A stretch of 64,000 nt of DNA. Origin: Solirubrobacterales bacterium. Its GTDB lineage: Bacteria; Actinomycetota; Thermoleophilia; Solirubrobacterales; JACPNS01. The DNA lies in NCBI GenBank assembly GCA_051306435.1, contig JBPPNF010000012.1, positions 1,908-65,907 on the forward strand. Reading direction: 5' to 3'. How positions within the stretch are numbered: the stretch's first letter is position 1; the number at the start of each line of letters is the position of its first letter. The notes below the pieces were generated by a model. The model was not told where the DNA came from. It saw nothing but the letters and a program-made list of their open reading frames with translations, and did not search any database. This document shows, one piece after another, positions 36,081-37,183 of the stretch. The position numbers and the translations under genes were made by a program.

Positions 36081-36986
36081 GTGGCCAATCTTCTCGAACT
36101 CACCAGCCAGGGCGATGTCGGCACGATCAGCGATGAATCGAAACTGGCAAACATCGAACTACAGCAGCCCCAGCAACTTTACGAACTTTGGGAACGTCAG
36201 CCGTGGTCGGCTCACGAGATCGACCTCAGCCAGGACGTCGAAGACTGGAAGAAGTTCCCGGAGTCCGAAAAGGGAGATGTAATCTGGGGCCTCTCCTCGT
36301 TCTTCGTGGGCGAAGAACGCGTAACCACTCAGTTCTCCGGGTTGGTCATGGCGTACGAAGATCAGTCCGAAGAGGCTTTCCTCACGACGCAGCAGGTTGA
36401 CGAAGCTCGTCACACTCAGTTCTTCGCTCGGTACTACGAAGATGTGTTCAGCATCGGCAACGGCATCGAAGCGCAGCTTGCGCGTGTGCGAGAGGACGTC
36501 AACGAGGGTTTCCTCGAGTTGTTCGACGTACACCTCGTGAACGCTTGCAAGCAGCTCGTTGATCATCCTGATGACATGGAAGCCAAGGTCGACTTCGTCA
36601 CGACTTACCACATGATCATCGAAGGCACGCTCGCGCTGACCGGGCAGTTCTTCATCACTGATTTCTTCGAGCAGCGCGGAGTGATGCCGGGATTCGTTGA
36701 CGGATTCAAGAAGATCAGTCAGGATGAGCATCGGCACGTCGCTTATGGGACCTGGTTTCTCAAAGAGGCCTGTAAAGACCCGGCCCTCGCCAGCCGCATG
36801 CAGGCCAAATTGGCCGAGCTCCTGCCGATTGCCGCAACGGTACTGGTCCCCAAGGGCCAGGATCCCTTCGGTGACTGGACGCTTCTTGGCTACGACTCGG
36901 CGAAGGTGAATGAGTTTGCGTTCACCGCGTTGTCGCGCCGCCTCCGCGTTATCGGTGTGGGCCTCCCGGAGGTCGCACCGGCATGA
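36081..36986 (+). CDS. R2-like ligand-binding oxidase (R2lox; ferritin-like dimetal enzyme)
   Basis: GEERVT, DEARH, YHMIIEG, DEHRH match R2lox GEEAVT/EEAKH/YNxxxEG/DExRH, including the cross-link Val and Tyr. Confidence 0.85.
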
Positions 36987-37183
36987 GCCCCTCAGAAACC
37001 ATCGCTGAGTCAGCAACGTCTCAGATATGGATCTGCGAACCGTGCGGGATGATCTATGACCCGGTCGATGGAGATCCCGACGGAGGCATTCCACCAGGAA
37101 CACCGTTTGAAAGCGTTCCCGACACATGGTTGTGTCCCGTGTGCGGCGCGCGCAAGCGCGAGTTTGTTCCATACGTGGACTGA
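36983..37183 (+). CDS. Rubredoxin
   Basis: [38 protein letters not shown] overlap with R2lox. Confidence 0.95.

Follow-up and report, generated by a model that had tools for sequence, protein, structure and literature searches.

In the 64,000-nucleotide stretch of contig JBPPNF010000012.1 considered here (hereafter the window; Solirubrobacterales bacterium, assembly GCA_051306435.1), two genes are joined at positions 36081-37183: one encodes an R2lox-like dimetal-carboxylate oxidase (36081-36986, +, 301 aa, GTG start) and the other, directly behind it, a rubredoxin (36983-37183, +, 66 aa, ATG start). The structures of R2lox proteins, a family known since 2009, are well studied, while the substrate, reaction and redox partner of these enzymes are unsettled. 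A sequence-only reading of this DNA had proposed the rubredoxin as electron donor of the oxidase, and it is the comparative evidence bearing on this proposal, drawn mostly from metagenome-assembled genomes (MAGs), that is set out below.

The stop codon of the first gene and the start codon of the second overlap in the four nucleotides ATGA (36983-36986, +, in the context 'ggcATGAgcc'), and both open reading frames (ORFs) are as the earlier reading had described them. A GGAGG ribosome-binding site for the rubredoxin (36968-36972) lies 10 nt 5' of its ATG, within the 3' end of the R2lox-like gene, which is itself preceded, 8 nt 5' of its start, by an AGGGAG Shine-Dalgarno sequence (36067-36072). 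A perfect inverted repeat of 11 nt directly 3' of the rubredoxin stop codon (37190-37245, no strand assigned) is a possible operon end; neither a T-tract terminator nor a convincing sigma-70 promoter was found when the R2lox-rubredoxin operon was searched for them. The 66-aa protein matches the Pfam family Rubredoxin (PF00301) at E 1.3e-20, with 73.6 bits against a cut-off of 23, and stays below the cut-off of the NCBIfam equivalog RubredRD (75.3 bits against 90). Its four cysteines (C18, C21, C51 and C54, in WICEPCG...CPVCG) form two CxxCG-type knuckles, and its net charge is about -8.

Affinities of the R2lox-like protein

At the level of Pfam, the larger protein is a member of Ribonuc_red_sm (PF00268, E 2.7e-18), and in public annotations its relatives are called ribonucleotide reductase (RNR) beta chain. 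Both facts favour its being a genuine class I RNR beta subunit, a reading that is ruled out by the rankings of profiles, solved structures and folds, by the residue at the radical site and by the RNR complement of the genome. The best matches are the five NCBIfam models of R2lox (NF006198-NF006202, E 5.6e-44 to 7.6e-26), the RNR beta models being far weaker, at 6e-9 at best, and in a sequence search of the PDB the R2lox chains score between 5e-28 and 1e-20 (SeR2lox, MtR2lox, SaR2loxI and GkR2loxI between 5e-28 and 4e-22), as against about 1e-6 for R2c and R2. The structure predicted with AlphaFold (AF2), with a predicted local distance difference test (pLDDT) value of 90 and a predicted template modelling (pTM) score of 0.90, has the R2/ferritin-like four-helix-bundle fold; when this model is compared with the PDB by Foldseek, the top 34 matches are all R2lox, with template modelling (TM) scores of about 0.75-0.8, and Chlamydia R2c comes next.

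The residues tell the same story. The motifs listed in the sequence-only reading (GEERV, DEARH, YHMIIEG and DEHRH) are all present, and their ligand and cross-link positions align with solved R2lox structures. The alignment comprised the window protein, the structures 7qbp, 3ee4 and 6qrz, and an ortholog sample of 80 loci whose R2lox-like proteins are 61-94% identical to that of the window. The metal ligands E78, E108, H111, E181, E216 and H219 occupy the R2lox ligand positions, and V81 and Y176 the positions of the ether cross-link (V76/Y167 in the Se protein, V71/Y162 in the Mt protein), whereas the radical tyrosine of RNR is replaced by phenylalanine, F115; all nine residues are invariant in the 80 orthologs. 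The genome, which measures 2.3 Mb and is 96% complete, holds just two PF00268 genes, both R2lox-like and both in the window, and for RNR catalysis it has a single subunit, encoded on another contig: the B12-dependent class II enzyme NrdJ, which scores 1395 bits with NF005122 (cut-off 859). Because R2lox leads the rankings and the lone RNR of the genome is of class II, the window protein is not an RNR subunit. Its grouping with R2lox and not with RNR beta subunits, on which the sequence-only reading had made its own proposal depend, is supported by the rankings from hidden Markov models (HMMs), phmmer and Foldseek.

It is nevertheless important to stress that the protein is no strict R2lox member. 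With 150.7 bits it stays below the cut-off (194) of its best NCBIfam model, NF006200, and further below those of the other four; since it falls under every one of them, it is, by its sequence scores, filed in a divergent Solirubrobacterales R2lox-like subfamily. It shares with the known representatives (MtR2lox Rv0233, GkR2loxI, SeR2lox, SaR2loxI/II) the predicted R2 ferritin-like fold, the six ligands, the Val and Tyr of the cross-link and the Phe at the radical site, yet it is only about 25-30% identical to them. The wider family is large: of the 8,000 candidates that were scored, 6,917 database proteins reach E <= 1e-5, and the named relatives among the best 120 listed belong to the Thermoleophilia/Solirubrobacterales. 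Genes of the SeR2lox type were not found in Solirubrobacterales at E 1e-30.

The second R2lox-like gene of the window (43006-44194, +) is a paralog that shares 36% identity with the first. Related genomes (L149, L150) encode this paralog as a single R2lox-SCP2 fusion protein of 434-458 aa; in the window its SCP2 part is read in a different frame (break near 43752-43775) and some 22 residues are missing at the N-terminus, so that the gene is either decaying or misassembled.

Linkage of rubredoxin and reductase in related genomes

The gene-neighbourhood analysis of R2lox homologs that the earlier reading had suggested was run on the ortholog sample, and a rubredoxin gene was found directly downstream, on the same strand, in 17 of the 80 loci. 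A 4-nt gene overlap alone is common in bacteria. In this case, however, 15 of the 17 loci with a linked rubredoxin retain an overlap identical to that of the window, at identities of 62-94% to the window's R2lox-like protein, which lifts it beyond chance. In the maximum-likelihood (ML) phylogeny of the R2lox-like proteins, the loci with a rubredoxin are dispersed; they require eight state changes, at least six of them forced by well-supported branches, and they extend to the most basal branches. Because of this distribution the data fit an old R2lox-rubredoxin operon whose linkage was repeatedly lost better than they fit repeated identical insertions. Matches to alkB or P450 are absent within ~5 kb at 12 of the 17 linked loci (those of L005-L007, L015-L017, L019, L025, L036, L041, L044, L055 and L057 that remain once loci with alkB are removed).

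The linkage appears to be a trait of the subfamily. No rubredoxin or reductase gene was found within 1.5 kb of 30 canonical, SeR2lox-type loci from 401 Actinomycetota genomes, whereas a rubredoxin/reductase operon is specific to the Solirubrobacterales subfamily. In an evenly drawn sample of the class, R2lox-like paralogs adjoin a rubredoxin, among the matches listed, only in the window's own genome. Two database proteins with both PF00268 and PF00301 (P0140 and P0151) are frameshift read-throughs of adjacent genes and not fusions, because their middle parts are Arg/Pro/Gly-rich and out of frame and their contigs carry other broken genes. In one relative (L125, 8167-9828), on a contig with many frameshifts, the R2lox-rubredoxin pair is followed by genes with a C-terminal fragment of a GMC oxidoreductase, which may be a broken alcohol oxidase or dehydrogenase gene.

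In three lineages the pair is extended by a third gene. The complete genome of Thermoleophilia bacterium SCSIO 60948 (CP053031.1, L094) has the order TetR (EthR_C), R2lox-like protein (72% identical to the window's), rubredoxin and reductase, the last being a rubredoxin/ferredoxin-type flavoprotein (Pyr_redox_2/Reductase_C) of 413 aa; the three genes from the R2lox-like one onwards occupy about 3,298,696-3,301,092. The order R2lox-like protein, rubredoxin and reductase recurs at L025/L171, with unrelated flanking genes, and at L225, where the R2lox-like protein, a fragment, has 83% identity to that of the window. These operons, from which AlkB is absent, have the R2lox-like gene as their sole oxygenase gene, and it is the only oxygenase in these samples that is physically joined by both rubredoxin and reductase. 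Thanks to a coupling kept in distant orthologs and to the reductase gene that joins it in three lineages, the proposed role of the rubredoxin as electron donor to the R2lox-like protein gains strong and independent comparative support. CP053031.1 also carries a further short R2lox-like gene (249 aa, L094 10405-11154, -), convergent on the three-gene operon.

In the window only the oxygenase and rubredoxin genes are together, the layout with all three being that of the relatives L094, L025/L171 and L225. A dedicated reductase was looked for near the window operon and none was found; a homolog of the operon reductase, 47% identical, is encoded unlinked on contig C7 of the same genome.

Rubredoxins of the same type are also found away from R2lox-like genes. 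Twenty such unlinked genes (L128-L147) occupy a conserved bioA-rubredoxin-nudix locus, between genes for a bioA-like aminotransferase and a NUDIX hydrolase; no AlkB, P450 or R2lox-like gene was found within ~3 kb of them, and a desaturase homolog lies near one (L134). The genome of the window has bioA directly next to nudix (C47:46608-48520), with the rubredoxin slot between them empty, so that the rubredoxin appears at either the bioA-nudix or the R2lox locus.

This genome encodes three rubredoxins, each flanking a different O2-activating enzyme of the di-iron type, namely AlkB, a membrane desaturase and the R2lox-like protein. The rubredoxin of the window is 47% identical to the AlkB-linked RubA, which is encoded in an alkB-rubA-tetR cluster on contig C32, and 63% identical to the desaturase-linked one (C47:81305-81475, L081), whose gene is flanked by those of a delta-9-type membrane fatty-acid desaturase and an acyltransferase_3 membrane protein; R2lox-linked counterparts in other genomes share 67-96% identity with the window rubredoxin. 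Judged by these identities, a rubredoxin linked to R2lox resembles its R2lox-linked counterparts in other genomes more than the AlkB-type RubA encoded in its own. The trio of acyltransferase_3, rubredoxin and desaturase is also present in a same-genus genome (L153).

Operator, alkB and neighbouring genes

A TetR-type operator, TTGACGCCATGTCAA, lies at 36023-36037 (no strand assigned), 43 nt 5' of the R2lox-like start codon, and has copies in the alkB promoter (25670-25684) and before an EthR-like tetR gene (26420-26434). The palindrome TTGACA-N3-TGTCAA, with at most one mismatch, occurs at three places in the window and at four in the 2.3-Mb genome, while a reversed control pattern has one site genome-wide. 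The fourth copy (C54:284-298, L089) stands at a contig end beside a Fic-domain gene and may be due to chance. In the ortholog sample the palindrome precedes the R2lox-like gene at 38 of the 80 loci, and since these are largely the same loci as those with a divergent TetR, the conserved unit is, as far as sequence comparison tells, TetR, operator and R2lox-like gene, plus rubredoxin where present. The window has a local TetR-family protein (35363-35971, +), upstream of the operon, co-directional with it and present only in the window's near relatives, and an EthR-like TetR (25808-26395, -), whose ortholog in many other genomes is encoded divergently from the R2lox-like gene (it is 46% identical to the divergent TetR of L006 and 40% to the operon TetR of L094).

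The alkane 1-monooxygenase AlkB, which the sequence-only reading had placed 11 kb away, is indeed there (24159-25421, -), complete with His boxes and 71% identical to the canonical AlkB on C32. That reading had further suggested that AlkB might share the rubredoxin, which is plausible because the window alkB has no rubredoxin gene of its own; alkB and the R2lox-rubredoxin operon have the operator in common, and close relatives combine R2lox-rubredoxin-P450 with alkB. As part of the alkB regulon, the operon may thus provide a rubredoxin that also feeds AlkB and, in relatives, the P450. In the window the cytochrome P450 gene is at 22740-24146 (+); in close relatives it follows directly on the rubredoxin, and the P450 may be a further client of it. 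The nearest relatives (L001-L003; L126) have thioesterase and BtrH-like genes on one strand, then TetR, R2lox-like, rubredoxin and P450 genes on the other, followed by alkB and TetR genes again on the first. In the window, 10-11 kb separate the operon from the P450-alkB-TetR block, which is found upstream, beyond an accessory cluster for type II fatty-acid synthesis (FAS-II), and the R2lox-rubredoxin operon ends at a tRNA-Ala. Compared with L001-L003, the block is on the other side of the FAS cluster, an order that looks circularly permuted and that a rearrangement of an island, or else a mis-join of the MAG, could explain.

Immediately upstream of the local tetR gene are a hotdog (4HBT) thioesterase gene (33767-34249, -) and a BtrH_N/DUF4872 acyltransferase-like gene (34246-35280, -), both of which recur beside the R2lox-rubredoxin pair at L015, L019, L028, L041, L126 and L127. 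Because of this recurrence, and because the paralog is, in related genomes, an R2lox-SCP2 fusion, the gene context points to lipid substrates for the R2lox-like protein, a lipid theme that also fits the known R2lox proteins.

Some further features of this region deserve mention. The accessory FAS-II-like set (26612-32476, -) comprises FabI-like, MaoC dehydratase, carboxyltransferase, ketoacyl synthase (KAS), acyl carrier protein (ACP), FabG and FabH genes, with a divergent PucR regulator at 32544-33746, and has no match at the corresponding place in L001-L003. A block of lower G+C content (0.58-0.62, against 0.65-0.67) extends from about 20400 to 37430 and ends at the tRNA-Ala(TGC) gene (37356-37431, -). 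A second tRNA-Ala(TGC) call by ARAGORN (54618-54710, +) is unusually long at 93 nt and overlaps a predicted ORF (53880-54767, -). DNA matching alkB is found at no fewer than four places in the 2.3-Mb genome, including C24 (about 87945-89041), the window gene (24159-25421) and C32 (about 7149-9399), where a tandem alkB pair is followed by rubA and TetR genes; the organism looks specialised for alkane oxidation.

A candidate electron-transfer chain and its alternatives

Considering gene identity, the conserved coupling, the three-gene operons of relatives and the operator common with alkB, the locus is probably a TetR-controlled operon in which a soluble R2lox-type dimetal oxygenase is encoded together with a dedicated one-electron carrier, the rubredoxin. 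Electron transfer, metal content, substrate and reaction are what we infer from gene context, as follows. NAD(P)H would reduce the flavin adenine dinucleotide (FAD) reductase, encoded in this genome on C7, which would pass the electrons to the rubredoxin; the acidic rubredoxin would then dock on the oxidase and, in two one-electron steps, bring its dimetal site back from M(III)/M(III) to M(II)/M(II), the form that reacts with O2, so that O2 could be activated again and again on a substrate bound in the R2lox channel, be it a long-chain alkane, a fatty acid or an acyl thioester. The dimetal site is proposed to be Mn/Fe or Fe/Fe. The type of reaction is a guess, for which hydroxylation seems most likely in view of the alkB regulon, of the induction of a haloarchaeal R2lox by hexadecane, as cited in PMC9314684, and of the claim, from crude lysates, that GkR2loxI is an alkane monooxygenase (PMC10867098). 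R2lox proteins bind C16/C18 hydroxy fatty acids and have a conserved positive surface patch, thought by the authors to bind a partner (PMC9314684); by analogy, this patch would suit an acidic rubredoxin.

When compared with known systems, the proposed chain would resemble AlkB-AlkG-AlkT, in that electrons would run from NAD(P)H through an FAD reductase and a rubredoxin to a di-metal, O2-activating enzyme, and in that the window operon is in one regulon with an alkB gene. The differences lie in the terminal enzyme, which is predicted to be a soluble, carboxylate-bridged four-helix bundle whereas AlkB is a membrane protein of the histidine-box type, and in the rubredoxin, which is of another type than the AlkB-linked RubA. 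A second likeness, a ferritin-like enzyme of lipid or hydrocarbon metabolism with an iron-sulfur carrier, is offered by cyanobacterial aldehyde-deformylating oxygenase (ADO) with ferredoxin and ferredoxin-NADP reductase (FNR), and by haloarchaeal R2lox, which according to work cited in PMC9314684 clusters with a ferredoxin and a sterol carrier protein. The R2lox-SCP2 fusion of the second paralog family recalls the latter, but here the carrier is a rubredoxin and, in relatives, the reductase is in its operon. MtR2lox and SeR2lox showed no ADO activity (PMC9314684). With this haloarchaeal cluster (as far as PMC9314684 summarises it) and the GkR2loxI claim (PMC10867098) in print, the statement of the sequence-only reading that partner and substrate of R2lox are not established is partly dated. 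The full-text literature search returned no paper treating R2lox and rubredoxin together. What is new is that a divergent subfamily of R2lox has a rubredoxin/reductase chain that is defined genetically, together with a link to AlkB; a ferredoxin beside haloarchaeal R2lox was known, in the outline given by PMC9314684.

Several observations weigh against a dedicated partnership. No rubredoxin was found within 5 kb at 63 of the 80 ortholog loci, nor was a true R2lox-rubredoxin fusion protein found in the searched database, and a same-genus genome has the rubredoxin while the R2lox-like gene was not found in its assembly. Orthologs of the operon reductase stand alone in 78 of 80 loci, with no AlkB, P450 or desaturase within 3.5 kb. 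Because the reductase is alone and the same rubredoxin type is mostly at bioA-nudix across the genomes of the order, the two look like general-purpose carriers and not exclusive partners, and other clients of the rubredoxin are possible, since the closest relatives place it beside P450 and near alkB. Moreover, purified R2lox has to date displayed only single-turnover cross-link chemistry and has given no product after redox cycling (PMC9314684), and the alkane-oxidation claim for GkR2loxI is based on crude lysates (PMC10867098).

Among the alternatives, one holds that the rubredoxin mainly serves AlkB, and perhaps the P450, that its position behind the R2lox-like gene reflects co-regulation, and that the oxidase obtains its electrons elsewhere or does not need them. 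The pairing of AlkB with rubredoxin is the textbook case, the window alkB is without a rubredoxin of its own and carries the common operator, and at L001-L004 and L126 the rubredoxin stands between the R2lox-like gene and P450/alkB. However, AlkB cannot explain the conserved coupling, because 12 of the 17 linked loci have no alkB or P450 match within ~5 kb; the three-gene operons do without AlkB, and the classical alkB-rubA cluster of this genome has its own, only 47% identical, type of rubredoxin. We therefore regard this alternative as unlikely.

On a par with it is the possibility that the rubredoxin serves cofactor assembly or repair only, for instance in a one-off maturation of the Val-Tyr cross-link with no multi-turnover. 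The model would be E. coli nrdA-nrdB-yfaE, where the gene behind nrdB codes for the [2Fe-2S] ferredoxin YfaE, which returns the di-iron site of R2 to its reduced state. The layout is analogous, with a small iron-sulfur carrier gene directly 3' of an R2-family gene, and the self-modification of purified R2lox without a product is what such a role would predict. The analogy has its limits: YfaE is a ferredoxin, it works with an RNR that has a radical tyrosine, and its role is one of maintenance and not of catalysis. Furthermore, an in-operon NAD(P)H reductase in three lineages suggests sustained electron flux, and TetR/operator control common with alkB fits an inducible catabolic enzyme, which leaves a purely maturational role improbable.

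The alternative that the two genes have no direct functional connection, and that a rubredoxin for general redox or oxidative-stress functions happens to be inserted at this place, is more doubtful still. The presence of the same rubredoxin type at the unrelated bioA-nudix locus in most genomes of the order speaks for it, as does the same-genus genome with a rubredoxin and no R2lox-like gene found in its assembly. In contrast, the kept overlap, the recurrence of the linkage on the tree and the recruitment of a reductase into the R2lox-rubredoxin operon speak against it; the 78 reductase and 20 rubredoxin loci elsewhere have no AlkB, P450 or R2lox-like gene within ~3 kb, the desaturase homolog at L134 apart. 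Finally, the class I RNR beta reading retains practically no probability after the comparisons given above.

Beyond the pairing itself, the R2lox-like protein, the rubredoxin and the Reductase_C-type flavoprotein may, tentatively and with the balance slightly against it, make up an undescribed soluble three-component oxygenase for long-chain hydrocarbons or lipids, operating beside AlkB within one TetR regulon. The discovery of a partner was named as a possible route to the R2lox substrate in a 2022 comparative study (PMC9314684), and the R2lox-like/rubredoxin/reductase operon provides a concrete, clonable candidate electron chain that makes the function of the family testable; one copy belongs to the complete genome CP053031.1, which, to judge by its strain-style name, may come from a cultured isolate. 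Since the operator ties the R2lox-rubredoxin operon to alkB, the search for substrates is directed to long-chain alkanes and their lipid derivatives. If the three-component reading is true, it would provide the first native electron-transfer chain for the R2lox family and the first route to its true substrate, and if the system turns over, it would represent a new soluble enzyme class, possibly with a Mn/Fe site, for biological C-H oxidation, and an addition to hydrocarbon degradation in widespread soil Actinomycetota.

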